Of a DNA stretch of 32,000 bases, positions 7,157 to 21,022 are shown one piece after another. The stretch comes from Bifidobacterium longum subsp. longum JCM 1217 (GTDB taxonomy: Bacteria > Actinomycetota > Actinomycetes > Actinomycetales > Bifidobacteriaceae): NCBI RefSeq assembly GCF_000196555.1, contig NC_015067.1, forward strand, positions 990,001 to 1,022,000, read 5' to 3'. Below the pieces are notes generated by a model. The model had not been told where the DNA came from and did not search any database. It saw only the letters and a program-made list of their open reading frames with translations. Positions within the stretch are counted from its first letter, which is position 1; every line of letters begins with the position of its first letter. The translations under genes were made by a program, and so were the position numbers.

Positions 7157-8440
7157 ATGGCGAAGTACACGAGGGAACAGCGGCAACGCGCGGTCGAGTT
7201 GTATGTGAAATACGAGTGCTGCGCGGCGGATGTGATCCGCGAGCTGGGGTATCCCAGCCGGGAGGCGTTGCGCATGTGGCACCGGGACTGGCTCGACGAA
7301 CAGGGGACGGGCGTGTCCTCGCAGCGTGGTGAACGGTATGCGCGCTACACGGAGGAGCAGAAGCGTGCGGCCGTGGACCATTATCTGACGCATGGTCGGC
7401 GTGCGAGCCGCACGATGCGTCAGATGGGGTATCCGAGCAAAGAGGTGCTTGCCTCGTGGATCGACGAGCTCGCGCCGGGCGAACGCCGGATTCGCCGTGG
7501 CCCGGTTCCCGGGGAATTGAAACGGGATGCGGTCCTGAAGGTCGCGTCCGGCGAATTGAGTTCGCGCGAGGCCGCGGAGGCGGTGGGTGTGGATTCGTCG
7601 GTCGTGCGAAACTGGAAGCGTCAACTGCTCGGAGACGCGAAAGGACTCATGGTGGCGAAGAGGGAACCGGAACGCGGGGATTCCTCGCAGCAGGACGATC
7701 CGGACGCGCTGCGCGGCGAGATCGCCACGTTGCGCGCCGACCTCGAGCGTCTGCGCGCCGAACAGCGGGCCATGGAGATCCGGTTGGCGATCATGAAGGG
7801 TGCGGCGGAACTGGTGGGAAAAGAGCCGGGCGCAGACCCGGACAACCTGACAAGCCGAGAGAAGACGACCCTGATCAAGGACATCAGTGAGACGTTGGGC
7901 GTGAACGCGGAGAGCCTGCTGAAGGAGGTCGGCATCGCGCGCAGCACGTACTACTACCAGTTGAAGGCCATGCGCCGGCCGGACAAGAACGCGAACCTCC
8001 TGTCCCTGGTGCGCGAGGCGTTCGGGAGCAGCAGGAGGCGTTACGGGTACAAGCGCATCCACCTCGAGCTCAAAAGCGCGGGCATCATCGTGTCGGCCAA
8101 GCGCATCATGCGCCTGATGACCAGCCACGGCATGGTCCCCGTGCTCAAGAGCGCGAAGCGCTACAGTTCGTACAAGGGCGAGATCGGAGGCGCGCCCGCG
8201 AATCTCGTGAACCGCGACTTCCACGCCACCGCGCCGAACCGGCTGTGGGTCACGGACATCACCGAGTTCTCGATCCCGGCGGGCAAGGTGTACCTGTCGC
8301 CGGTCATCGACTGCCACGACGGCATGCCCGTCGCCTGGACGATCGGCACGAGCCCCAACGCCGCCCTGGCCAACGGCATGCTTCGCGACGCGTGCGCCAC
8401 GCTCAAGCCCGGCGAGACGCCGATCATCCACTCGGATTAA
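7157..8440 (+). pseudogene. IS3-family transposase, N-terminal 427 codons (HTH, leucine-zipper-like region and first part of the DDE domain), truncated by insertion
   Basis: HTH region YTREQRQRAVELYV, then YGYKRIHLELK, RLWVTDITEF (first D), and it ends ...PIIHSD immediately before the element terminal repeat. Confidence 0.85.
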
Positions 8441-8530
8441 GCCGGGTTTGTTGTTAAGCCGGGGAACGGTTCGGGGTCTTGGTGGCTGGCCGTGTCCCAT
8501 GTGGTTTCCCGGCTTAACGTTCCGGGTTAT
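8436..8530. repeat. RIT left terminal inverted repeat (95 bp)
   Basis: Exact reverse complement of 11784-11878. It contains TTAAGCCGGG at 8437 and 8454, and the inverted copy CCCGGCTTAA at 8508. Confidence 0.9.
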
Positions 8531-9582
8531 TTGAGGGTGTGTAGTTGTCGGAGTCGTTGCTCGCTGAGCCATGTCTCCTTGGAGGGGTCGGGGCCGGGGT
8601 TGGCCGCATCGACGGCTTTGCGCATCATGTCGAGGGTCGCGAACGCGTAGAACGCGCTGGTTGTGCTCATGCTTTCGTGGCCGAGCAGTTGCATGATGAG
8701 CGGTAGCGGCACGCCCTGTTGGTAGAGGTCCATGGCGCGGGTCCGGCGGATCAGGTGGCAGTGGACGCGTTCGGGCATGGACGGGCACGTCCCGCGGCGT
8801 GCTCTGGCCGCCGCGGTTTTGAGGATCTCGTCGATCCGGTCCACGGAGAGCGGCTGGATGGCGCCGTTCCTCGTCGAGTGGAACAACGGCCCGTCGCCGT
8901 CGCGCATGGACGGTCCGGGATGGAATTCCTCGAGGTAGGCGGCCAGGTGGGTTCGTGTCCTTTCTCCCAGGGGCACGACCCGGCTCTTGCCGCGTTTGCC
9001 GGTGAGCGTGACCCTGGCCGGCTTATCCATACCCACGTCCGCGATGGTCAGTGCGGCGAGTTCGCCGATCCTGGCGGCGGTGTCGTACATGAGGATCAGG
9101 AGCATGCGGTTCCTGCGCGATTTGGCGTCGCCGGTGCCCCATGCGGTCAGCAACGCTTTGGTGTGCTCCTCCCCGAGGTGGTCGACGGGTTTGCGCGCGG
9201 GTGGTTTGACACGTATGCCGGCCGCGTCGTTGCCCAGCGCGGTCAATGCCGGGTGTTCGAGGCCCGCGTGGTCGAGGAACACGCGCATCGTCGTCATCCT
9301 CAGCATGATGGTGCGGTCCGAGTACCCGCGCTCGGTCCGCATCCATTCGACCCACCGGCCCAGGCGCGCCCGGTCGAAATGCCCGAAACCGATGTGGCTG
9401 CGCTGCGTGCCTTCCGTGGTTTCGAGCCATCGGACGTAGGATTCCAGGCCGATGCGGTACGCCTCGACGGTCTTCGGCGAGCTGCCCCGCACCTTGGGCA
9501 GCCAGTGGTGCAGCCAGTCGCGCGCGACTCGCCAGAAGTCCGGTTCACCGGAGCTGGCGGCCGTTTTCCTTGCCTTGCTCAT
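8527..9582 (-). CDS. tyrosine recombinase/integrase, third gene of the trio
   Basis: Catalytic boxes TAARIGELAAL, HCHLIRRTRA, LLGHESMSTT and FYAF. Its ATG at 9582 overlaps the upstream stop as ATGA. Confidence 0.85.
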   Translation of the reverse strand: MSKARKTAASSGEPDFWRVARDWLHHWLPKVRGSSPKTVEAYRIGLESYVRWLETTEGTQRSHIGFGHFDRARLGRWVEWMRTERGYSDRTIMLRMTTMRVFLDHAGLEHPALTALGNDAAGIRVKPPARKPVDHLGEEHTKALLTAWGTGDAKSRRNRMLLILMYDTAARIGELAALTIADVGMDKPARVTLTGKRGKSRVVPLGERTRTHLAAYLEEFHPGPSMRDGDGPLFHSTRNGAIQPLSVDRIDEILKTAAARARRGTCPSMPERVHCHLIRRTRAMDLYQQGVPLPLIMQLLGHESMSTTSAFYAFATLDMMRKAVDAANPGPDPSKETWLSEQRLRQLHTLK

Positions 9583-10544
9583 GGTTCCTCCGTTTCCGGG
9601 ACCACGCGTTCGGCGTCGGCGACGAGGTCCGCGTATCCGTCCATGAAATCGAGGCTGGCGTGCACGTAGTAGAGGGTGCTGTCGATGCCGGCGTGTCCCA
9701 TGTAGGCCGCCAGATAGGGCAGCATCGCCATCACGTCCACGCCGTCGCGAGTCCACCGCTCGATGTTCGCGAACGCGAACCGGTGCCGGAAATCATAGGG
9801 CCTGGGCCGTTTGCCGGCTTGTGGCCACTCGAGCCCGGCCCGCGTCCAGACGCGGCGGAACACCACGCCGGGCATGCCCGGGGAGACCGGATTGCCGGTG
9901 GAGGTGACGAAGAACGCGGGACGGTCGTCTCCGAAGCGTTCGCGGGACCGTTGGTCGCATTCCAGCAGTTCGGCGGCGACCTCGTCGCCCACGGGCAGCC
10001 TGCGGCTGCGACCGGCCTTGGAATCGACCACGTCGATGGAACGGGCCTTGTGGTCGACGTGCCCGACGGCGAGTCTCCTGACCTCTCGGGTGCGCAGCCC
10101 GCAGCAGGCCATGAGCATGAAGAACGCGCGAGACTGCCACGCCCACGGCGACGGAGACTCCAACGTTCCCGCGGCCCGCAGGAACAGGGCGGCCTCGCGG
10201 TCCGTCAGCAGGTACGGCGTCGGACGCGGGGATCCGGCCTTCCACTGGTCGGAGAGCACGTACGCGTCGGGATCGTGGGCCAGTCGCATCCACCTGCCGA
10301 AGTCCCTGATGTACGAGAACCACGAGCGGCAACCCCCGGGATTCGCGTCGATCCTATGGGCGATCCATCGCTCCACGACGCCCCGCTCCAGACGCACGGC
10401 CCCGTGTTCGAGGCAATGCCGGTCGAACGAGCGCAGGACCTGGACGCGGGTGGCGCCATGCCTGCCCATGGACGCCTTGAAACGGATGTACTCCTCCAAT
10501 TCGCCGGCGAGCGGGCCGACGAATCCGTGTTCCGTGGGTCTCAT
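9579..10544 (-). CDS. tyrosine recombinase/integrase, second gene of the trio
   Basis: Boxes CCGLRTREV, PYDFRHRFA, YMGHAGIDSTLYY. Its ATG at 10544 overlaps the upstream stop as ATGA. The ORF-track N-terminal extension to 11066 overlaps the first gene and is rejected. Confidence 0.85.
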   Translation of the reverse strand: MRPTEHGFVGPLAGELEEYIRFKASMGRHGATRVQVLRSFDRHCLEHGAVRLERGVVERWIAHRIDANPGGCRSWFSYIRDFGRWMRLAHDPDAYVLSDQWKAGSPRPTPYLLTDREAALFLRAAGTLESPSPWAWQSRAFFMLMACCGLRTREVRRLAVGHVDHKARSIDVVDSKAGRSRRLPVGDEVAAELLECDQRSRERFGDDRPAFFVTSTGNPVSPGMPGVVFRRVWTRAGLEWPQAGKRPRPYDFRHRFAFANIERWTRDGVDVMAMLPYLAAYMGHAGIDSTLYYVHASLDFMDGYADLVADAERVVPETEEP

Positions 10545-11743
10545 GACGATCCGCCTTCCGGCACGGGCAGCACGCACGCGAGCATTCCCCCGCGGTGCGT
10601 GGCCATGTAGACGCGTGTGGAATCGGGGTCGGCGTGGCCAAGCACCGCGCTGATCGTCGGCAACGGCGTGGCCGCCTCCAGCATCCTCGTCGCCGCGTTG
10701 CGCCGCAACAGCCTGGAACCGCCCCGGCGTCCGAGCCCGGCGTGCCGCATGACACGGCTGATCGCCTCGTACACCGATGAATGACCCCGAAGCGCGACAT
10801 GGGGCGCCTTGTACCGCACGAACACACGGTCGTCGTCGGTGGCGGGCCTTTCGTCCAACAGCCAGGACGCCAGCCTCGCGGCCAGCGGTCCCGTCATCGG
10901 CACGGTCAACGGATTGCCCGTCTTTCGCTGCACCAGACCTATGCTCATGGAATCCCAATCCACGTCGGCGATCCTCAGACCGATCACATCGCATGCCCTC
11001 AGCCCGCACGTCAGCGACAGCAGGGTGATCGCCGCGTCCCTCGACGGCACCGACCGCGAGGCGCACGCCTCCAGCAAGCGGCGGTGCTCGTCGTCGGGCA
11101 ACGTTCCCGCGATCGCGTGGGTCCTGCGTATGCCGGCCAGGCCGATCGCGTCCGCCAGGTCATCCCGCCCGAGCCATCTGAACAACGGGCGCAGGTCCGA
11201 CGCGGCGTGCCGCATCGACGACTCCGACCAGCGTGAACGCAGCCCGGCCAGGAACCCCAGCACATGCGAGCCATCCGAACCGTCCAACGACACGACCCCA
11301 TGAGATTCCAGCCACGTGAGGAACAAGCCCGCCATCCGACGGTAATGCCCCACCGTCGCCGAAGCCAGTCCCGAACCGGCGAGATACGCCTCCCAACGCT
11401 CCATGACCACGGCCAAACCCGGAACCACCGGCTCCGCAAGCCTGCTCCTGCGCCACTTGCCCAGGTCCACCGAACCGGACCGCAGATACGAGTCGCACAA
11501 ACGCGCCAGCCTGCCGTAATCGAACCACCGCTGCCTGCTGAAACCGCCCGTCCGCTCACTGAAGGTCGACGCGGCGAACCCCGCGCCCAACCCACGCGTG
11601 TACACCGCATCCGGGCCTCCGGCGTACCGTTCCAACGCCCTGATGGACTTGCGGTACTGGCCTATGGTGGATTCCATATAACCGGCCCCGTAAAGCGCGC
11701 GGACCACCTCGCCCGCGACATGGCCAACCGTCGTCTCACCCAT
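10541..11743 (-). CDS. tyrosine recombinase/integrase, first gene of the trio
   Basis: AAGGAG RBS precedes the ATG at 11743 (MGETTVGHV...). Boxes TCGLRACDV, LLRRNAATRM, VLGHADPDSTRVY. Confidence 0.85.
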   Translation of the reverse strand: MGETTVGHVAGEVVRALYGAGYMESTIGQYRKSIRALERYAGGPDAVYTRGLGAGFAASTFSERTGGFSRQRWFDYGRLARLCDSYLRSGSVDLGKWRRSRLAEPVVPGLAVVMERWEAYLAGSGLASATVGHYRRMAGLFLTWLESHGVVSLDGSDGSHVLGFLAGLRSRWSESSMRHAASDLRPLFRWLGRDDLADAIGLAGIRRTHAIAGTLPDDEHRRLLEACASRSVPSRDAAITLLSLTCGLRACDVIGLRIADVDWDSMSIGLVQRKTGNPLTVPMTGPLAARLASWLLDERPATDDDRVFVRYKAPHVALRGHSSVYEAISRVMRHAGLGRRGGSRLLRRNAATRMLEAATPLPTISAVLGHADPDSTRVYMATHRGGMLACVLPVPEGGSS

Positions 11744-11783
11744 GGCAAACTCCTTCGTTCGAATCAAATGGGACAAGACGAAC

Positions 11784-11878
11784 ATAACCCGGAACGTTAA
11801 GCCGGGAAACCACATGGGACACGGCCAGCCACCAAGACCCCGAACCGTTCCCCGGCTTAACAACAAACCCGGCTTAAT
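11784..11878. repeat. RIT right terminal inverted repeat (95 bp)
   Basis: Exact reverse complement of 8436-8530. Confidence 0.9.
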
Positions 11879-11910: not shown

Positions 11911-12198
11911 AGGGGTTGCCATTACCGGTGGCCGGAATGGATCCGCATCTGCACCGAGCACGGGCTGACCCGGTCGATGAGCGCGAAGGGCTGTTCGCCG
12001 GACAATGCGGCCGCGGAGGGGTTCTTCGGCCGTCTCAAGCAGGAGTTCTTCCACAAGAGGAGCTTCCGGGGCGTGACGATCGACGAGTTCACCGCGATGC
12101 TCGACGAGTACATGGTCTGGTACCGCGACAAGCGCATCAAGACCGAATACGGCATGAGCATCATGGACAAACGCATCCAGCTCGGGCTCGTCGCCTGA
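11911..12198 (+). pseudogene. IS3-family transposase, C-terminal 95 codons (remainder of the DDE domain)
   Basis: RGCHYRWPEWIRICTEHGLTRSMSAKGCSPDNAAAEGFFGRLKQE carries the IS3 hSDrG..Y and the catalytic E region. It is in frame with ORF 11977..12198. Confidence 0.8.
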
Positions 12199-12278
12199 AA
12201 CCATCCGGTACACTGACCAACGACCATACAGACAACGAAGTCCAACAAAACGTCACCACCCCCGGGTATTCCCTTGAC

Positions 12279-12410
12279 CTATCCGTGTTTTCGCTCTGCA
12301 AAGTAGTTCTGAGCGGCGGATCGATACTCACACAGATGTGTACGGTGTGCTGTCAGCGTCTTTGTAGTTTCGCCGGTCAGTTGCCTGGTAATCCAGGATA
12401 AATCAGTCAT
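12279..12410 (-). CDS. small ORF (43 aa), hypothetical
   Basis: It is not in the ORF track because it is under 60 aa. GAGGAA RBS lies 3-4 nt upstream of the ATG (MTDLSWITRQLTGETTKTLTAHRTHLCEYRSAAQNYFAERKHG). It is on the same strand as the XRE gene. Confidence 0.3.
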   Translation of the reverse strand: MTDLSWITRQLTGETTKTLTAHRTHLCEYRSAAQNYFAERKHG

Positions 12411-12568
12411 GGTTCCTCACTTCCATGTGAGGCAGTACACTTGGGTACTGCCTCTATTGAGTGCATTGATAAAGGTCAGCCCCGCAAGCGCTACCAACAT
12501 TTGCGGGGCATTTAAGTTTTGATACAACCGAGAGGAAACCGGGGCTGAAACCCCGGCGCGATAGCGTG

Positions 12569-12703
12569 TTATCCGACGTTCAGCGTCAGCACTTCCACGC
12601 CATCAATCAGGACAATCACCCTAGGGTAATCGTCTATGATTAGCAGAGTATGGTATTCGCCGCAGCAATCGCAGCGCCATACGGTGCCGAGACCATATAT
12701 CAT
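12569..12703 (-). CDS. small ORF (44 aa), hypothetical
   Basis: GAGAGGA RBS lies 8 nt upstream of an internal ATG (MIYGLGTVWRCDCCGEYH...). A minus-oriented hairpin with a T-tail follows (12539-12556). Confidence 0.3.
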   Translation of the reverse strand: MIYGLGTVWRCDCCGEYHTLLIIDDYPRVIVLIDGVEVLTLNVG

Positions 12704-12941
12704 GGTTAATATCCTCTCGGTTGTAGGATGACCCGCACGTTTGTGTGGGCCAAGTTCCGCAAGGGAACACGTAAGCCGCAAGCGTTCACAGCACTTGCGG
12801 CTTTCGCTTTATGTCCCGAACGGAACAACCGAGGGGTCAAACGACCCAGTGCCTAGACTATGGGGTGAACCCAGTGAGTTTAGGCCGACTGCATACGATG
12901 CCTACAGTCGGGCGAAGAGTTGAATTGATTAGGGCACACAC

Positions 12942-13166
12942 CTAGCTTTCGCTAGTGTTTTCTTTCGGCCTCTCAGCCTCTAACAGTTTGCGAGGGTTAC
13001 TGACCTTGAGCGCGTCACATAACTTGATAGCCATGCCAAGACTCATATTTTCGATAGGTCTTGAACCAGTCTCAGTCGCGGCGATTCGCGTGTGCGGCAC
13101 ACCTGACTTGTCAGCTAGTTGACGCTGGGTTAACCCGCGCTTCTGCCTTAACTCCCTAAGACTCAT
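12942..13166 (-). CDS. XRE-family (Cro/CI-type) helix-turn-helix transcriptional regulator
   Basis: LRELRQKRGLTQRQLADKSGVPHTRIAATETG is a canonical HTH_3 pattern. Confidence 0.85.
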   Translation of the reverse strand: MSLRELRQKRGLTQRQLADKSGVPHTRIAATETGSRPIENMSLGMAIKLCDALKVSNPRKLLEAERPKENTSES

Positions 13167-13252
13167 TACCCACCTCGCTTATGCTCAGTGGGCCCGATTA
13201 TACCTATCGTTGAAACATCTGTAGAGTGAGGGGCATAAATCGAAAGGCGTCA

Positions 13253-14077
13253 ATGATGAACGGAACATTCGAGCAGTTAAGAGCAGCCGTGTATGGCCAA
13301 GCAGTCGGTGATGCCTTGGGCGTACCTTATGAATTCATGCCGAGAGATACCTTCCGATGCGAAGGTATGACGGGATACGGTACGCATAACCAGCCGATTG
13401 GCACATGGTCGGACGATACCAGCATGATGCTCGCCACATTGGACTCGCTGATCGCCAATGAATGGCAAGTCAATACTGAAGATATGCGAGAGCGATATCT
13501 GGCATGGCTGAGTAATGGCGAATACGCGATTGACGGACGAGTCTTTGATTGCGGGCGAACGGTCTCCATCGCGTTGCAGCAGCGTGTGGGCTTAAGCGGT
13601 GAACGAGACAATGGCAACGGCTCACTGATGCGGATCATGCCGTTGGCGTTCGCGGATGCTTCCGCGGATGACGTACGTGCCGCATCTGCAATCACGCACG
13701 CCCATGCAATCTCGATGGATGCCTGTTCGAGCATGGTGGATGTGTTGCGCGACGGACTCATCAAAGGCATATGGCCGCAAGAGCTGGATGATGAACCGCT
13801 ACGCGGTATGCCGCGTGATGAAGTTGGTTCGAGCGGCTTCGTCAAAGACACGTATGAGGCGGCGCTCTGGTGCCTCGCGAATACCGATGATTATGCGAGT
13901 TGTGTGCTCGCCGCCGTCAACTTGGGTGACGATACAGACACGACCGCCGCCGTCGCCGGATACCTGGCCGGCATCAAATATGGATTCGATGCCATTCCCG
14001 CTCAGTGGCTGGCGGTATTGCGCGGACGTGAGTTTATTGAGGATGTGCTTGGACGGACGGAGTCGGCGTGGCATTAA
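13253..14077 (+). CDS. ADP-ribosylglycohydrolase family protein (ARH/DraG-like)
   Basis: GQAVGDALGVPYEF, WSDDTSMMLA, GNGSLMRIMPLA and GDDTDTTAAVAGYLAG are the family metal-binding motifs, and all are intact. GAAAGG RBS precedes the ATG at 13253. Confidence 0.9.
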   Translation: MMNGTFEQLRAAVYGQAVGDALGVPYEFMPRDTFRCEGMTGYGTHNQPIGTWSDDTSMMLATLDSLIANEWQVNTEDMRERYLAWLSNGEYAIDGRVFDCGRTVSIALQQRVGLSGERDNGNGSLMRIMPLAFADASADDVRAASAITHAHAISMDACSSMVDVLRDGLIKGIWPQELDDEPLRGMPRDEVGSSGFVKDTYEAALWCLANTDDYASCVLAAVNLGDDTDTTAAVAGYLAGIKYGFDAIPAQWLAVLRGREFIEDVLGRTESAWH

Positions 14078-14475
14078 GGCGCTCGCGGCGAGTAGCAACC
14101 TACTGTTTCTGTATGCGATGAAGATGGCCAGTACGCCACCATCAACAGTGAGGACTCCCTGCCTACTGTTCTCCACGATCACGCCCAAGCACTGGACACT
14201 CCCATGTCTCGTTCCGCTGAACATTGCCGAGAACTCCCTTCTTCTGGATGCGCATCATCGAATCCCACTTGCTCGACGCCCAGACTGCTTTGGACGGGGA
14301 TACGCCGCTAGTGGGGGACAGAGATTGAGACGCATCCGGGTTCGAATAGTGTGAGGGATTTGGCTTTGCCAACGGTTGTTGGACACATTCCATACGGTGG
14401 TGCCTGTGTTGTTCGCAAAAGTATGTCTATCTAATCGTTAATCGAGGATGACGATATGGTGAGTTTTTCTGCCGC

Positions 14476-14481
14476 TATAAT
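14476..14481 (+). promoter_or_regulatory. TATAAT -10-like hexamer upstream of the TerB/Gly-zipper operon
   Basis: A perfect TATAAT lies about 105 nt upstream of the ATG at 14587, in an AT-rich spacer. The -35 is weak. Confidence 0.3.
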
Positions 14482-14586
14482 GTAGGATTATTAACAGGTT
14501 ACGGCTGAAGAACTGATTACAGTATTAGAACATTTTTTTCTGATATATGTGGTTGGCGTAGATGTGGCATATACGAGGGGCATCCT

Positions 14587-15477
14587 ATGGCGGATGATGA
14601 AACTCATATCGGTCGAAATAACGAGGAACGCAAGGAAGACGAAAACCGTCGCATTATGGGAAAGGCGCTGGAAGGTGCTGCGGCGGAAACCGTGCAACGC
14701 TTTGGTTCTGCCGTCAAGGAACATTTAGCGGCCTATGCGGGTGATAGAGAGAATGCTGCCGATGGTAATTCCAAACTGTCTAAGACCTTGAAGTCCATTG
14801 CTGAAACGCCGACAAGTAATGAATTCAAAAAGCAGAACATAGCTCAGCAAGCGGGTTTTAGTGCCGAGGTTGAGTCGGTAGCCAGGAAGAACGCCGATAA
14901 CATTATTGCTGGCAACGATACGCGATTCAAACGATATGATGACGTGAAGCATTCAGATGGACGGCAGACATCGAACGACCCCATCGTGGATATTGTCGAA
15001 GTGGATGGATTGGGCAAAACGATCATCGGCTCCGAGGCTCAAATGAAGTTCGTCGGCAGTAGCCCGAAAGAGCTGCTTAATGCGTTGAAAAGCAAGGAAT
15101 ATGCGAAATATCGTAATGAAGGCGTCATCATGAATATTCCGGATGATTATTACGATGTACTGATGGGTGATGGGCCTGACGGCATCAACGGACAGATACG
15201 AAAACTTCAGGGCGAGCTGGATGGAGATCGGCTTGCCGGCAAGAATTCTCCAGAGTCTATTCAGCAGCAAATCGATGATCTGAAACAGATTAAGAAAAGC
15301 CTGCGGAAAAGTGGACTTACCAAGCGAGAAGCGTTGTATGCGCGAGAACATCCCAGACGCATGGTGGCGAAAGATGTAGCCAAAGTTGCCAATAAAGCCG
15401 GTCTGCAGCAGGCAAGGAATGGTGCGCTGATTGGTGGTGGTGTTTCTCTGATTCGAAATATGGTTGCCATGCATTAA
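14587..15477 (+). CDS. hypothetical protein, N-terminal part of an apparently frameshift-split gene (operon gene A)
   Basis: GAGGGG RBS. The N-terminus is charged and the core reads QQAGFSAEVESVARKNADNIIAGNDTRFKRYDD. The ORF ends ...GALIGGGVSLIRNMVAMH*, and the downstream frame is already open from 15452. Confidence 0.6.
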   Translation: MADDETHIGRNNEERKEDENRRIMGKALEGAAAETVQRFGSAVKEHLAAYAGDRENAADGNSKLSKTLKSIAETPTSNEFKKQNIAQQAGFSAEVESVARKNADNIIAGNDTRFKRYDDVKHSDGRQTSNDPIVDIVEVDGLGKTIIGSEAQMKFVGSSPKELLNALKSKEYAKYRNEGVIMNIPDDYYDVLMGDGPDGINGQIRKLQGELDGDRLAGKNSPESIQQQIDDLKQIKKSLRKSGLTKREALYAREHPRRMVAKDVAKVANKAGLQQARNGALIGGGVSLIRNMVAMH

Positions 15478-16201
15478 TGGCTCTATTGAGCCAGCGGAGG
15501 CAGCGAGAAACGTCGGCGTCGATGCAGGCTTGGCTGCGGCGTTCGGCTATGTCACCGCTTTTTCCGGCGCTGCCATTAAGGGTGCCATGCAAAACGCGTC
15601 GAGCGAGTATCTGCGTAGTCTATCGAGAACGAACGTTGCAGCTACGATGGTCTCCACTGTAACGGATGTTTCCAAGGTGGTTGCACTGTATTGCCGCGGC
15701 GAGATTACTGGAGCTGTTTGTATAGAGCGCCTCGGCCAGCAGGGAATGGGGCAGCTCGGAGGAGTGATGGGCGTTGCCGTGGCGATGGCCGCAATACCTG
15801 CAGATGGTGCTTTTATGGCTGCGATGGTTGGTATGGCTGGAAGCACCTTGGGATATGCTGCAGCTGTTGCCATATATGAGGAATTATCCACTGCTCTGCA
15901 TGACTATGAGCTGGCGAAAGAGGAGCGTATTCGTGTGGAACGCGAATGTGCGGAAGCGGTGGAGCTCATCCGCCAATATAGGCGTGATATGTCTAGGGAT
16001 GTCGAGAATTATCTGGCGACTCATGATGAATTGTTTAATAGAGCATTCGATGCAATGGATCAAGCGTTGATTTCCAATGATATTGATGGATATTTGGCCG
16101 GAAACGCCGAGATTCAAGAATCCTTGGGATACTTGCCAAGGTTTCGGACTCAGCAGGAGTTTGATGATTTGATGGCGTCAGACGACAATTTCGTTTTATA
16201 A
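15464..16201 (+). CDS. hypothetical Gly/Ala-zipper plus coiled-coil protein, C-terminal part of split gene A
   Basis: There is no ATG or RBS at its 5' end; only a TTG lies inside the overlap. Hydrophobic small-xxx-small segments are present (GMGQLGGVMGVAVAMAAIPADGAFMAAMVGMAGSTLGYAAAVAIY), followed by a charged helical tail. Confidence 0.55.
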   Translation: MPCINGSIEPAEAARNVGVDAGLAAAFGYVTAFSGAAIKGAMQNASSEYLRSLSRTNVAATMVSTVTDVSKVVALYCRGEITGAVCIERLGQQGMGQLGGVMGVAVAMAAIPADGAFMAAMVGMAGSTLGYAAAVAIYEELSTALHDYELAKEERIRVERECAEAVELIRQYRRDMSRDVENYLATHDELFNRAFDAMDQALISNDIDGYLAGNAEIQESLGYLPRFRTQQEFDDLMASDDNFVL

Positions 16202-16215
16202 GGAGGAGCCAGTTA

Positions 16216-17154
16216 ATGAAGTACATCAAAACACGTGATGCATTACAAGCATTTTATTATCTGATTGCTGTCGATGGATCAGTCCGTGACGACGAACGCG
16301 CACTATTCGATCATATAGGTGACAATTTGGATGCAAAGCACTTCCATGATTATCGCAAAGAGATTATCGATTCGTGCGATGAGCGTATAAACCAGTGCCA
16401 CGATTCCGATGATCGCTACGACGTAATTGTTGAGGGTGTTGATGCAGTCTTGTCGCATCGAACGGATAAAAGAGCTGCAGGAATTGCACCAAGGCTGCTT
16501 CTGTGGAATATGTTGTCAGTTGCCTTCGCCGATGGGGAATATGATGCAGTAGAAAGCAGACTCATCAGACATATTGCCCGGACGATGATTGCCGATCGTT
16601 CCATATACCCCGAAATGGAACATCTTATGCGCGCGGCGTATGACGTGCGAGGCGAGCTCGACTGGATCAGCAATTCCGAACTGCCATATAGTGAAGTTCG
16701 CCCCATGGTGGATCAGCTGGAAGAGCGCGTGAATGTTCTCCAAAACGCTGCCGTGTTGCTGATTGAAGACGAGACAGCCGCGCCAGCCCCGGAAGTCATG
16801 GTTCCAGAGAAGGACGTGTTTGATCAGACCAAGGATGCCGTTGACTCGGTGGTCGCTCCGGTTGTGGATCAGGTTCAGCAGGGTGCTCAGGGAGCCGCGG
16901 ATGCGGTGAAGCATACGTTTGACAATAATGTTGCTCCTGTTCTCAACCAAGTTGGCGATGCGCTGAAGCCGGTGAATGATGCAGTGCTGAAACCGGTAGG
17001 CAACGCAGCCAATGAGGTTGCGAAACGTGCGGGTGACGCAGCCAATGAGGCTGCAAAACGTGCGGGCGATGCGGCCAATGAGGCTGCAAAACGTGCGGGC
17101 GATGCGGCCAATGCTGTACAAGGCTTCTTCGGTGGCCTCTTTGGACGCAAATAA
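16216..17154 (+). CDS. TerB-domain (tellurite-resistance TerB / DjlA-N-like) protein with a repeat-rich amphipathic C-terminus
   Basis: AAGGAGG RBS. The two TerB half-motifs are AFYYLIAVDGSVRDDERALF and LLLWNMLSVAFADGEYDAVESRLIRHIAR. The C-terminus has 3 x AKRAGDAANEA and ends FFGGLFGRK. Confidence 0.75.
   Translation: MKYIKTRDALQAFYYLIAVDGSVRDDERALFDHIGDNLDAKHFHDYRKEIIDSCDERINQCHDSDDRYDVIVEGVDAVLSHRTDKRAAGIAPRLLLWNMLSVAFADGEYDAVESRLIRHIARTMIADRSIYPEMEHLMRAAYDVRGELDWISNSELPYSEVRPMVDQLEERVNVLQNAAVLLIEDETAAPAPEVMVPEKDVFDQTKDAVDSVVAPVVDQVQQGAQGAADAVKHTFDNNVAPVLNQVGDALKPVNDAVLKPVGNAANEVAKRAGDAANEAAKRAGDAANEAAKRAGDAANAVQGFFGGLFGRK
17011..17109 (+). repeat. 3 x 33-bp in-frame tandem repeat inside the TerB-domain gene
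   Basis: AATGAGG(T/C)TGC(G/A)AAACGTGCGGG(T/C)GA(C/T)GC(A/G)GCC. Copies 2 and 3 are identical and copy 1 differs at a few positions. Confidence 0.9.
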
Positions 17155-17178
17155 GAGAAACCCAGGAAGGAATTCACT

Positions 17179-18171
17179 ATGCCATTTTTTGTTGTTCCAC
17201 TATTCATCGGAATGGCCGCTGCTGCCGGTACCGCAGGCGTGGGTATGGCTGCCAAAGGTAGTCTTGATCAGCACACGGCGAATCAGCTTAACGACAATTC
17301 CGGAGCACGCATTCGATGGGCAGCTAATAACCTCGAAAAGCTTCGTGGGCAATGTTCGGATTCCCTGAATGCCTTGGGCAAAGAGAAAGTCATCATTTTG
17401 GATGGGAGCGTTCAGCGCTTCCTTGATGCTTTTCAACAGTTGAAAAATGTTGATTTCACCGCGTCCGAAGGGCTTGATGAACTCAATAAACTGCGCATAG
17501 ACAAAGCGGCTTTTGATGAACTTAAAACCATGGGAAACATAGCTTCGTCTTTGCTGGAAGGCGGTGTGGCCGGGGCAGCCAGCGGTGCATTGGCTGCGTT
17601 TGGCGCATATAGTGCCGCGTCGGCACTTGCCACGGCTTCCACAGGAACTGCGATCAGTGCATTAAGTGGTGTGGCTGCTTCCAACGCCACGTTGGCGTTC
17701 TTCGGGGGAGGGTCCTTGGCTGCAGGTGGCTTGGGCATGGCCGGTGGCGCCGCTGTACTTGGAGGTTTAGTCGCAGGTCCTGCATTGCTGGTCATGGGCG
17801 TTATCATCGGTGCCAAGGGTGGCAAAAACCTTGAGGAAGCGAAGACCCAGTCTGCTGAGGCAAGCAAATATTGTGAGCAGATGATGGCCGGTGCGGACCA
17901 GTGCGTTGCCATTCGTCGGCGTAGTTATATGTTCCACGCTTTGCTTGCCCGTCTTGATGCTAAATTCCTGCCTTCAATTCTTGAAATGGAAAATATCATA
18001 AAGACCGAGGGAACGGATTATTCGCAATTCCGTCAGGAAAGTAAGAAGACTATTGCCGCAGCTGCGTCCACTGCAGCATCAATCAAGGCCGTGCTAGATA
18101 CTCCTCTGCTGGCCGAGGATGGGTCACTTACTTTGGAGTCGGAGAAGCTGATGAAGAACAGTGGCATTTGA
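17179..18171 (+). CDS. hypothetical membrane protein with an N-terminal TM helix, coiled coil and a central Gly/Ala-zipper block (operon gene C)
   Basis: GGAAGGA RBS. N-terminus MPFFVVPLFIGMAAAAGTAGVGMAA. Central block NATLAFFGGGSLAAGGLGMAGGAAVLGGLVAGPALLVMGVIIGAKGG. The C-terminal region is helical. Confidence 0.7.
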   Translation: MPFFVVPLFIGMAAAAGTAGVGMAAKGSLDQHTANQLNDNSGARIRWAANNLEKLRGQCSDSLNALGKEKVIILDGSVQRFLDAFQQLKNVDFTASEGLDELNKLRIDKAAFDELKTMGNIASSLLEGGVAGAASGALAAFGAYSAASALATASTGTAISALSGVAASNATLAFFGGGSLAAGGLGMAGGAAVLGGLVAGPALLVMGVIIGAKGGKNLEEAKTQSAEASKYCEQMMAGADQCVAIRRRSYMFHALLARLDAKFLPSILEMENIIKTEGTDYSQFRQESKKTIAAAASTAASIKAVLDTPLLAEDGSLTLESEKLMKNSGI

Positions 18172-18198
18172 TGGGATGAGGATTCCGGAGCTGGACTG

Positions 18199-18426
18199 AT
18201 GGTTCTGTGTCTTCTTCCGTTGATTTTGGGATATGGCGAGAATCCGTTGCCCGAGATGACGAGTCTTGCGGAAGCTCATGGCATTCGACTATTTAGTCTG
18301 CCGACTGTCGGACGAGAAGTGGATGCTTTCAGTTTTATGTTCGATGGTGTGCCGTATATCGCGGTAGATACCAGCAAGACCGCAGAACGTGTCCGTTTTG
18401 ATATCGCACATGGAATGGGCATCTGA
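18199..18426 (+). pseudogene. ImmA/IrrE-family metallopeptidase relic, 5' fragment
   Basis: ...AEAHGIRLFSLP...DAFSFMFDGVPYIAV...RVRFDIAHGMGI*. The expected HExxH reads HGMG, and the frame stops inside the motif. Confidence 0.65.
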
Positions 18427-18917
18427 TGATGCGTGAAATGGTATCCGAGGATGTAGCTGCCGCAGTAACGCGCGATATCGAAGGTGAAGCTCATTCGTTC
18501 GCCGCGAATCTTTTGATGCCGAAGCGCCGTGTTCTGGGCATGGTGCCGACTCACGCTTCAGTGTCGCAGATTTTGGCTGCGAAACATTATTTCAAGGTTT
18601 CCGCAATGGCTATGGCTCGCCGGGCCTATGAGCTGGGCCGATTGTCTGAATGGGAATATCGGCAGGTTTGCTCAGAACTGACGGTTCAAGGATACAAGAG
18701 TGGCGAGCCACGTGATCTGCGCCCAGAACAGTCGAAGGTATTCCGATTCGTGGCTGATACCAATAGGCAGAAGGGCATATCGGTTTCTACGGTGAGTGAG
18801 GAGACCGGGCTTGTGCCCAAAGAATTGCATGGATTGTCGTTTGGAAATATTTGGGCGGTTACGGGTGGGAGTAGCCTGAGTCAGAGAGCCATCTTGGGTC
18901 GAAATGAATCTGTTTGA
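18426..18917 (+). pseudogene. ImmA/IrrE-family metallopeptidase relic, 3' fragment
   Basis: EGEAHSFAANLLMP is the conserved third-ligand region (E..AN.FA..LLMP). It continues the 5' fragment after a 1-nt frame change. Confidence 0.65.
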
Positions 18918-19225
18918 GCTGACATCGCAATCTGGGTTGTGCAATGACTGAGTAACCCCTTGTTCTTTTGAGAGGTCGCTTCGCTGGTTTCCGTTGGTTT
19001 CGTTAATCGCATTTTTCGTTGCAATGACGCCGTTCTGGTGACGTTCGCGAGATTCGTTGATTGCTGCTGATTTCGCTGTTCTCTGCGGTCATTGTGTCCC
19101 GGTTGTGTCCACAGCGGCGCGGGTGTTCCCCAGTCAAATGAACTGGAATGACTGAGGAACAGCGTTGGACACCAATCAACTTGTCCGATTCTCTCCTATG
19201 AACTCTTGGAGCTGAGCATGTTGGT

Positions 19226-21022
19226 TTACTTACCATCCCTATGGTCACTTTCGTCGAGCGGGATTAGAGTAATGTGCGAGAAATCTATTACATCGCCGAA
19301 GAATACTTGTGATTCGTATTTCCGGACCTTGGCAGTGGCTGTGACAATTTTCTTAGCCACCACGCCATTGACTCCATCCATCGGCAGCAACCTGTATTCT
19401 CCGGTTTTCTCGGAAATCGTTTTGCATCCAGAGACGTTTGCGTACCACTGATAGTATCCAAGGAAGACTTTCCGCCTTCCCACATAGGCATTCAAACGGC
19501 TGACTCCATGAATGCAAGAAGGGAAACTCACCTTGCGTATCGACATGCCTGGATTAAGAGTGAAGGATAGTCCGTCCCACTTGTGGAAGATATAAGCATT
19601 CTTATGTTCCAGTAGAGCCAGAGCGATAATGTCGTTCTGGATGTCGAAGTCTCTGATTTCTTTGAACTCCGGGAACAAGATCTCTGACGAGGAACGCCGC
19701 TGAAGATCACTGTACAGCTGGGCAATTTCTTGCAGCTGCGCAAAATCAGGAAGATTATTAGTCGGCAAGTTGTCAATAGACAGGAAGGCTTCACCGTCAG
19801 GCGAGTGAAGGTTGAACTCCGATCCCTGCGAGAGCTCCTGACAAACGGTTATGGCGTCTTTGACCTTATCAACCGGCTTGCCCACTATATTTTTGATGGT
19901 GAAATTCATCTTGACCGTCGTGGTCGCATCACCATCAAAAATAAGTTGGACCCGAAGGCACTCGCTTTCATCCTCACCAGTCCATTGAGCACCGCCTTCA
20001 ATCCCGTGAGTGCGCTCAACCTGTTTAAGCGACACGGAAGCAGAAGGCGAGGCCAAGATAAGCTCTAAATCATTCCCTTCATTCTGCGGGAGAATGAACG
20101 CCCGGCAGGACTGTATCTGCGCATCGGGCAGCGTGTCCTTCAGAAACGGGATATTGCCAGTATCCGCAAGACGAACAGGGAAATCAGCAAGTGAGGTGCC
20201 ATATTTTTTGAACGACTCAAGCTGCTCACGTTGCTCTTGGTTCTGTGGCACAAACTGCACGGGGAAGGTTATCTTCGCGAATGACGTCGCTTCCTTGTAC
20301 TTGGCGATCACATCAACGGTGATTGACGACCCGTCCGGCCTCTTTTCCAAAAAAGAGAAAACGAGGTTCGGTCTCGTAATGAAATATGAATGCTCGTCGA
20401 ACTTACTGGCGATGTTCACGGTATAGGCATAGTTGGGATCACGATTTTCCAGCATGTCACAAATCGAGTGAAGTTTCGACAGCAGCGCTTTATCATCATG
20501 CAGATCGTCCACACGAGCGGCTTCGATAAATGTATGGACCAATCGCTCCACTTCGCGTATACCGTTACCGAGGAAATAGTCATAGACCTCGGGCATATCG
20601 GTAGCCCAAGCTTGGATGTTGGGTAGCCCGACCCAATCACAATTATATGGCAGTTCCTTCGTTATTTCCTTGAACCATTTCAGATTCTGCGGAGTTGGAT
20701 CCAAGGGCAAGACCAGATACCAGTTCGCCACCTTATAGCCGGTTTCCCGGATATAGTCGTTCAGCGACTTCAGCGACTTCTTAATCTGACTCTTCTGGCT
20801 GGTTTTAAGAGTATGGGCAAACTTCTTCACCTGATAAACGTCATAGGTGCCATCACCGTTCTTCACCTGAAGATCTATCCCATTGTCACCGGATGAAGGG
20901 CGAACACGGTTTGCCTCAGGACGCTGCTTGCAAATAAATACGGCAAGCAGCGTCTCCATATCCTCGCCGGACAGATTCCCCCATGGAATAGGATCAACCA
21001 CGAAAACCTCGCTTCTTGCCAA
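19226..21022 (-). CDS. large hypothetical protein with an N-terminal Mrr-like PD-(D/E)xK (restriction endonuclease fold) domain
   Basis: EDMETLLAVF...SSGDNGIDLQVKNGDGTYDVYQVKKF matches the Mrr_cat pattern (E...D.GID...Q.K). There is no Walker A and no other recognisable domain in the remaining 450 aa or so. The start is uncertain: TTG at 21022, GTG at 21001 preceded by GAGG, or ATG at 20959. Confidence 0.7.
   Translation of the reverse strand: MARSEVFVVDPIPWGNLSGEDMETLLAVFICKQRPEANRVRPSSGDNGIDLQVKNGDGTYDVYQVKKFAHTLKTSQKSQIKKSLKSLNDYIRETGYKVANWYLVLPLDPTPQNLKWFKEITKELPYNCDWVGLPNIQAWATDMPEVYDYFLGNGIREVERLVHTFIEAARVDDLHDDKALLSKLHSICDMLENRDPNYAYTVNIASKFDEHSYFITRPNLVFSFLEKRPDGSSITVDVIAKYKEATSFAKITFPVQFVPQNQEQREQLESFKKYGTSLADFPVRLADTGNIPFLKDTLPDAQIQSCRAFILPQNEGNDLELILASPSASVSLKQVERTHGIEGGAQWTGEDESECLRVQLIFDGDATTTVKMNFTIKNIVGKPVDKVKDAITVCQELSQGSEFNLHSPDGEAFLSIDNLPTNNLPDFAQLQEIAQLYSDLQRRSSSEILFPEFKEIRDFDIQNDIIALALLEHKNAYIFHKWDGLSFTLNPGMSIRKVSFPSCIHGVSRLNAYVGRRKVFLGYYQWYANVSGCKTISEKTGEYRLLPMDGVNGVVAKKIVTATAKVRKYESQVFFGDVIDFSHITLIPLDESDHRDGK

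Follow-up and report, generated by a model that had tools for sequence, protein, structure and literature searches.

Dionysus, an anti-phage system of Pseudomonas aeruginosa, consists of DinA, the TerB-like protein DinB, and DinC (van den Berg et al., bioRxiv 10.1101/2025.09.30.679545). DinA carries a MAEBL-like head and a transmembrane segment, and DinC is alpha-helical, resembles pore-forming toxins, and has four transmembrane segments. All three genes are needed, protection against phiKZ-like jumbo phages in P. aeruginosa exceeds 10^6-fold, and the host survives infection and is not permeable to propidium iodide. In the presence of Dionysus, neither the phage nucleus nor the early infection vesicle is formed; foci are seen for DinA and DinC, and in an AlphaFold3 prediction DinC binds the C-terminus of DinA. 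The hosts given are Gamma- and Betaproteobacteria (all bioRxiv 10.1101/2025.09.30.679545). Bunzi, a membrane-associated defence system, pairs BnzA (TerB plus transmembrane helices) with BnzB (Millman et al. 2022). Here, we report a three-gene cassette, likely a member of the Dionysus family, in Bifidobacterium longum subsp. longum JCM 1217. It lies in a window of 32,000 nucleotides (NC_015067.1, positions 990,001 to 1,022,000); coordinates below are those of the window unless a locus label (L) precedes them.

Identification of the cassette

The cassette comprises genes A, B, and C.

14587-16201, plus strand: gene A, dinA-like, a pseudogene in this strain (open reading frames [ORFs] 1 and 2 joined; 537 aa once repaired)
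16216-17154, plus strand: gene B, TerB family (Pfam TerB), in the DinB position, 312 aa, identical to BLLJ_0805
17179-18171, plus strand: gene C, dinC-like, 330 aa, identical to BLLJ_0806, helical with a central glycine-zipper block

Din sequences for comparison were taken from Table S1 of the Dionysus preprint (bioRxiv 10.1101/2025.09.30.679545). Protein C aligned with DinC at 39% identity over 308 aa (BLASTP, E=9e-43), and repaired protein A with P. aeruginosa DinA at 35% identity over 396 aa (BLASTP, E=3e-55; 399 DinA residues compared). A DinA-type protein from an Azospirillum replicon aligned with A end to end (34% identity, E=9e-91). Between B and DinB, 27 to 53 residues aligned, in the second TerB half only (E ~1e-4; hhalign probability, 56%), and DinB itself escapes Pfam TerB detection. 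The published DinA substitution H326A could not be mapped, as the DinA sequence compared has no His at position 326. The gene order in the window (A, TerB, C, in one operon) is that of Dionysus. Given the homology of A to DinA and of C to DinC and the shared gene order with a TerB-type gene in the middle, the cassette is likely a B. longum member of the Dionysus family, ordered dinA-like, TerB, dinC-like, with a divergent, more canonical TerB protein.

An earlier reading, made from the letters of the window and its ORFs (the sequence-only reading), had recognized no named system of such composition. That statement falls with the homology of A and C to DinA and DinC, and with the match of C to the PADLOC profile PDC-M09A. 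Its proposal of a defence-type module agrees with the Dionysus homology and with the defence-rich contexts of related cassettes, and defence is the best reading of the locus.

Sequence and predicted structure of the three proteins

Protein C begins with a hydrophobic N-terminal helix and has a long block in its center.

17560-17814, plus strand: uncharged Gly/Ala/Ser-rich block of C, residues 128-212 (85 residues)

The length of the block allows about four membrane segments. Region 113-215 holds 35 small-xxx-small pairs in 103 residues, stretches 128-168 and 170-212 are uncharged, and the motifs ASTGTAI and VLGGLVAGPA are near-invariant. The AlphaFold2 (AF2) model has long helices at residues 6-86, 109-160, 199-277, and 286-307 (predicted local distance difference test [pLDDT], 65; below 50 in the membrane block). 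Foldseek of this model against the PDB returned no significant match (best E=0.024, generic coiled coils). No Pfam family covers C, and a profile search found no relative among PDB sequences; an NCBIfam scan of A, B, and C gave no informative matches.

These properties bear on how the cassette would act. Under abortive infection, the mode put forward in the sequence-only reading, C would, with A and the TerB protein, make pores in the host's membrane, depolarize it, and kill the cell before phage release. A glycine-zipper block of ~85 uncharged residues next to long amphipathic helices suits such a role; the Gram-positive host has one membrane and no known alternative phage vesicle target; C weakly resembles the tripartite toxin AhlC in structure; and pore-forming effectors are frequent in defence systems (bioRxiv 10.1101/2025.09.30.679545). 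However, the AhlC match, an alpha-pore-forming toxin and the sole thematic one in the Foldseek output, is not significant (E=0.15-0.27; TM-score, 0.30-0.36), and the sole tested homologue behaves otherwise: Dionysus-bearing P. aeruginosa is neither permeabilized (cells stay impermeable to propidium iodide) nor killed. We consider killing of the host through its own membrane unlikely.

Protein A, the second membrane-type protein, is interrupted in this strain.

15469, plus strand: one inserted base (A) putting gene A out of frame, from alignment to intact homologues
14587-15291, plus strand: predicted DinA-type N-terminal cytoplasmic head, residues ~1-235, from the AF2 model and conservation
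15740-15877, plus strand: hydrophobic Gly/Ala-rich hairpin, residues 385-430, predicted membrane anchor
15815-16198, plus strand: C-terminal module of ~120-125 aa present in all A-type proteins, from a hidden Markov model (A_C HMM)

An extra A at 15469 (GTTGCC[A]TGCATT) divides a single gene into ORF1 and ORF2. Deletion of this base yields a 537-aa protein; intact homologues measure 526-549 aa, and the gene is unbroken in other B. longum strains, with products of 532-538 aa (one of 538 aa reported at 100% identity, many intact ones at 93-95%; CP118598.1 is one source of an intact allele). Besides the window, two complete genomes (CP049767.1 and CP137052.1) have the insertion, and it is absent from four loci: at the frameshift site, the window, L090, and L092 read GTTGCCATGCATT, and L087, L088, L089, and L091 read GTTGCCTGCATT. 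Since it is common to three assemblies and missing from four, the insertion is a genuine lineage-specific mutation; a sequencing error is ruled out by its non-homopolymer context and its presence in three assemblies. Because of this +1 frameshift in dinA, the operon is probably inactive in this lineage. Gene A is likewise split into N-terminal and C-terminal ORFs in two metagenome-assembled genomes (L081:3856-5409 and L082:3681-5221), where the splits could be independent inactivations or assembly errors.

The AF2 model of protein A has a pLDDT of 71.5 overall and 84-94 over residues 70-250. In the head, which corresponds to the DinA domain named MAEBL-like in the preprint (bioRxiv 10.1101/2025.09.30.679545), the modeled elements run alpha-beta-beta-beta-alpha-beta, and the invariant residues are E94, D118, N130, D135, Q152, K154, K174, and Y175. 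The head had no match in Pfam, the PDB, or Foldseek, and ten isolated DinA-type heads searched against Pfam at E<=10 gave no recurrent family. Among PD-(D/E)XK nucleases, a QxK variant of the motif exists. With E94, D135, and Q152-x-K154 on the modeled core (residues ~80-190), the DinA-type head has a D...QxK motif that recalls such nucleases, and it might be a PD-(D/E)XK-like nuclease, active or degenerate; this stays speculation, as Pfam and Foldseek are unsupportive and the idea builds only on motif and topology.

The model of A also has moderately hydrophobic helices. The hairpin, a region of low AF2 confidence, reaches a Kyte-Doolittle maximum of 1.82 and is uncharged over residues 407-430. 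The helical C-terminal module is modeled with a pLDDT of 79-91 over residues 460-530. Protein A has no Pfam family and no relative among PDB sequences, and Foldseek of its model against the PDB gave nothing significant (best E=0.84). Of the glycine-zipper hydrophobic blocks described earlier for both flanking proteins, C has the uncharged Gly/Ala/Ser-rich block (residues 128-212) and A the hydrophobic Gly/Ala-rich hairpin (385-430); the AlphaFold-type modeling and Foldseek search suggested at the same time produced models of A and C and no significant structural match.

Protein B, the middle gene product, scored above the Pfam TerB gathering cut-off (E=7.5e-6; 26.7 bits; cut-off, 24.4), which answers the HMM check proposed with the sequence-only reading. 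That reading had also seen both halves of the TerB signature, and each of the two D-G-x5-E half-motifs (D20/G21/E27 and D106/E113) is invariant in an alignment of 23 family members, as is W97. The TerB structure 2ou3 matched the protein B profile at only E=0.098, and the profile search against PDB sequences gave nothing below E=0.02, the top matches being haemagglutinin HA2 coiled coils (E=0.02-0.06). The tail of the protein is repetitive.

16999-17113, plus strand: 33-bp tandem repeat, 3.5 copies, in the C-terminal tail of the TerB protein (Tandem Repeats Finder score, 174)

Each repeat encodes 11 amphipathic residues (AANEAAKRAGD), and the repeat number differs among strains (3 copies, 312 aa; 2 copies, 301 aa). 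The tail gave weak apolipoprotein-, perilipin-, and phasin-like matches.

The TerB domain raises the question of a Ter-type or envelope stress module (tellurite, metal, or membrane stress), in which TerB would be a sensor and the two membrane proteins would stabilize the membrane. The domain is a true TerB domain, public databases call the product "tellurite resistance protein TerB," and the amphipathic repeat tail resembles lipid-binding proteins. Against this, Pfam annotation of the homologous B. longum loci (±10 kb) contains no TerC, TerD, TerZ, or TelA; the cassette is mobile between phyla, and its contexts vary and are often rich in defence genes; it is dispensable and is frameshifted in one lineage; and homologues of two of its genes belong to a system with demonstrated anti-phage activity. 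A stress-response function is improbable.

Conservation, modularity, and distribution

The assembly collection lists the exact C sequence in 2,801 blocks. A word-indexed search retrieved over 3,693 relatives of C, and a profile search gave 4,890 representatives at 50% identity clustering (E<=1e-3), of which 1,203 had E<=1e-30. At least 355 genomes carried a relative in a scan of one genome per species. Hosts include Bifidobacterium, Lachnospiraceae, Oscillospiraceae, Ruminococcus, Erysipelotrichaceae, Enterococcus, Sporolactobacillus, Coriobacteriia, Bacteroidales, Spirochaetales, Planctomycetes, and Chloroflexi, and the family reaches its greatest abundance in gut anaerobes that are Gram-positive or belong to Bacteroidota. 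With thousands of homologues, the cassette genes are genuine and not chance ORFs. Antisense ORFs such as 16516-17121 (minus strand) were rejected as artefacts, TerB being intact on the plus strand in all six B. longum loci. In L088 and L089, public annotation shows a 201-aa antisense ORF (9338-9943, minus strand) instead of the intact TerB gene; this call is an annotation artefact of the Ala-rich repeat region.

Gene order was surveyed with HMMs built for this analysis in the best 80 loci, 65 of which had enough upstream DNA. The order A-TerB-C, with gaps of a few nucleotides, was kept in 57 of the 65 (Actinomycetota, Bacillota, Bacteroidota, and others), so that the neighbor conservation across genera asked about earlier was found in these species genomes. 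The other eight had A-C without TerB (n=6), TerB-C (n=1), or C alone (n=1). TerB-less variants have a DUF3944 gene 3' of C or a ~190-aa extension on C, and, of the relatives, they give the best matches to both PDC-M09 profiles.

Variant loci: L068:7009-7776, L077:7015-7779; L065:2268-3854, L083:6001-7575, L085:6001-7560; L093

On the Azospirillum replicon, the genes run WYL protein, A, C, 309-aa protein, PD-(D/E)XK nuclease.

An A-type gene was present in 63 cassettes, with a DinA-type head in 21, a BnzB-like domain in 36 (e.g., L016, E=1e-116), and a short protein in 6, at least two of the latter being split genes like A of the window. Twenty of the 36 BnzB-type proteins are ~700-840 aa long, and those examined add a Peptidase_M48 or NUDIX (PDC-S07) head. 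An M48 or NUDIX head, the BnzB-like domain, and the shared module were seen together in L023:2818-5229, L018:2873-5194, L059:2702-5212, and L015:3161-5179. Within BnzB-type A proteins, matches to the A_C HMM are confined to the final 113-137 residues (mostly ~115-135; E=1e-18 to 1e-41), and the BnzB profile stops near the start of this common module. As the C-terminal module is all that DinA-type and BnzB-type proteins have in common, it fits a role in holding C; we infer it to be a docking module for protein C.

It is possible, and we propose it tentatively, that Dionysus, Bunzi, and PDC-M09 are branches of one large TerB-linked membrane defence superfamily that moves horizontally. Its constant pair may be the docking module of A (~120 aa) and the DinC-like glycine-zipper protein. 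The heads (DinA-type, BnzB-like, M48 plus BnzB-like, or NUDIX plus BnzB-like) may be interchangeable, and the third partner may be swapped among TerB, a DUF3944 protein, and an extension fused to C.

Proposed mechanism

As a Dionysus-type system, the cassette with an intact gene A would act as follows. Protein A would be anchored in the cytoplasmic membrane by its Gly/Ala hairpin, with the N-terminal head in the cytoplasm as a sensor or effector and the C-terminal module (~120 aa) holding protein C. The TerB protein, with its acidic motif pair and amphipathic repeat tail, would be a peripheral membrane component that senses or relays a membrane- or ion-linked signal of infection. On activation, the glycine-zipper block of C would enter a membrane, and infection would be halted early. 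The Pseudomonas counterpart targets the early infection vesicle that jumbo phages form, with survival of the host; in Gram-positive hosts, the target may be the cell membrane, as in abortive infection, or a phage-associated membrane or entry site. For the B. longum cassette, the sequences show homology to two of the three Dionysus components, conserved gene order, domain modularity, and the frameshift; defence activity in Bifidobacterium, these roles of the parts, and a membrane target are what we infer from homology.

Several points count against placing the cassette in this family and transferring its mechanism. The direct comparison of A with DinA leaves the last 158 DinA residues outside, and the TerB protein aligns with DinB only marginally. 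An alpha-pore-forming-toxin fold of C has no statistical support from Foldseek (E>=0.024). In this strain, the operon is disrupted, and not all three genes are intact. The Dionysus preprint is not peer reviewed, its experimental basis is P. aeruginosa, and Gram-positive members are known from sequence alone. We know of no described jumbo phage of bifidobacteria that forms a nucleus, so the target published for Dionysus is not simply transferable; nor do we know of phages of this host that form an early infection vesicle.

For the gut anaerobes in which the family is most abundant, we likewise know of no described nucleus-forming jumbo phages. The presence of the family in hosts for which we know of no vesicle-forming phages suggests a membrane-linked mechanism of more general scope. 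Under the tentative superfamily reading, it would extend beyond the vesicle of jumbo phages, for example to the place at the membrane where the genome enters.

The portions of the preprint text and supplements available to us mention neither Gram-positive nor Bacteroidota gut taxa, and the BnzB head-swap link was not found in them (bioRxiv 10.1101/2025.09.30.679545). A bifidobacterial defence survey, which excluded PDC candidates, likewise contained neither the spread among gut bacteria nor the Bunzi head-swap link. The present assignment would extend a recently validated anti-jumbo-phage system to B. longum and to hundreds of species among gut Bacillota, Bacteroidota, and Coriobacteriia, and the intact and frameshifted alleles of B. 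longum offer a natural comparison for phage susceptibility.

Genomic context

The four ORFs of the cassette (14587-15477, 15464-16201, 16216-17154, and 17179-18171, plus strand) share one orientation, with gaps of 14 nt (16201 to 16216) and 24 nt (17154 to 17179). Signals read from the sequence are as follows.

5' of 14587, plus strand: Shine-Dalgarno GAGGGG of gene A
5' of 16216, plus strand: Shine-Dalgarno AAGGAGG of gene B
5' of 17179, plus strand: Shine-Dalgarno AGGAAGG of gene C
14476-14481, plus strand: TATAAT, candidate -10 box, in the 509-bp spacer that precedes gene A

Coordinates and sequence here agree with the sequence-only reading, which had listed four co-oriented ORFs, both gaps, and Shine-Dalgarno sequences before the first, third, and fourth ORFs. 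The TATAAT it placed in an upstream spacer of ~500 bp is also present; it is weak promoter evidence, because a sigma-70 consensus scan found no full -35/-10 pair in the 509-bp spacer. No convincing terminator was found after 18171 by consensus scan.

GC content is 0.48-0.55 over ~12000-21000 and 0.60-0.68 in the flanks; with the recombinase and insertion sequence (IS) genes nearby, this dip bears out the earlier description of a foreign-composition island with element relics. At 7157-11866 and 11977-12198, the window holds an IS (HTH_Tnp_1 plus rve), three tandem tyrosine recombinases (minus strand), and an IS3 rve_2 fragment. At the same chromosomal site, some B. longum strains have the recombinase array and others lack it. 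Elsewhere, the surroundings of the cassette vary and often include BREX, MobL, a helicase/methylase/PLD cluster, or a Schlafen-type helicase.

A function for the mobile element itself, as exclusion or addiction of an integrative or mobilizable element, would fit the three tyrosine recombinases and IS copies of the island and the Ruminococcus copy, which adjoins MobL and helix-turn-helix (HTH) genes. Yet the cassette occurs at the same site with and without the recombinase array (L088 and L089 versus L087 and L090). Searching phage and plasmid collections with C (tblastn) gave no match, and relatives occur in only 9 of 2.9 million viral contigs, two of them full-length; in the three contigs checked (L094, L096, and L098, one with a full-length match), HMMs found no A or TerB partner. 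With DinC, tblastn returned six plasmid or chromid records. We regard a service to the element as very improbable, and defence of the Dionysus type is preferred here too.

Upstream of the cassette, a CapH-like HTH gene (12942-13166, minus strand) is divergent from an ADP-ribosylglycohydrolase gene (13226-14077, plus strand; Pfam E=4.6e-56). The latter precedes the cassette in six of six B. longum loci and the HTH gene in five of six (none called in L091); Bifidobacterium leontopitheci has neither. The pair could be a regulator and separate module or an accessory of the cassette. Directly 3' of gene C, ORFs 18199-18426 and 18426-18917 (plus strand) carry one ImmA/IrrE (Peptidase_M78) gene in two pieces, N-terminal and C-terminal, similar to RmrA (PADLOC E=4e-39) with the HTH part missing; they look like a decayed antitoxin or regulator gene. 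Convergent with the cassette, a 598-aa orphan ORF (19226-21022, minus strand) has no Pfam family; its N-terminus is weakly similar to the nuclease-type region of LmuA (Lamassu; E=1.5e-7), and it may be a separate single-gene defence candidate.

Comparison with known systems

The PADLOC search proposed earlier succeeded for one candidate: C matched PDC-M09A (E=1.7e-23 and E=4e-20 for two profiles), and Bunzi components were unmatched. DinC matches the same profile (E=8e-25). PDC-M09 is an unvalidated two-gene PADLOC candidate that lacks a TerB component, unlike the cassette. Protein A matched PDC-M09B weakly and partially (residues 44-192, E=1e-4), and two-gene Bacteroidales relatives match both profiles; in L083, the match to PDC-M09B spans profile positions 106-446 (E=3.4e-17). 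Literature searches found no publication on PDC-M09, on the tags BLLJ_0803-0806, or on TerB with a glycine zipper and phage.

Shango shares a TerB-domain component with the cassette. Membership in Shango is rejected, in line with the sequence-only reading, as the ATPase and helicase genes were found neither in nor beside the cassette. A Ter operon is rejected on the Pfam annotation described above.

ClyA, Hbl, Nhe, and AHL toxins are elongated helical proteins with a hydrophobic head; the model of C is helical too, and the preprint likens DinC to alpha-pore-forming toxins (bioRxiv 10.1101/2025.09.30.679545). They differ in that C has no sequence similarity to them and no significant structural match (AhlC) and would act inside the cell without being secreted.

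Bunzi resembles the cassette in containing TerB and in its association with membranes, and a BnzB-like domain lies inside A proteins of related cassettes; it differs in having two genes and no DinC-like protein. No window protein matches the BnzA or BnzB profiles at E<=0.1, and membership is rejected. Swappable heads on a constant docking module would nonetheless tie Dionysus to both Bunzi and PDC-M09.

Dionysus differs from the cassette in its hosts (Proteobacteria in the preprint; here, a Gram-positive actinobacterium), in its TerB-type protein (DinB, 211 aa; here, 312 aa, above the Pfam cut-off and with a tail of 11-aa repeats), and in dinA, which is frameshifted in the window. The likeness is in the whole arrangement: a protein with a head and a membrane anchor, a TerB-type protein, and a helical protein with about four membrane segments, in the same order.

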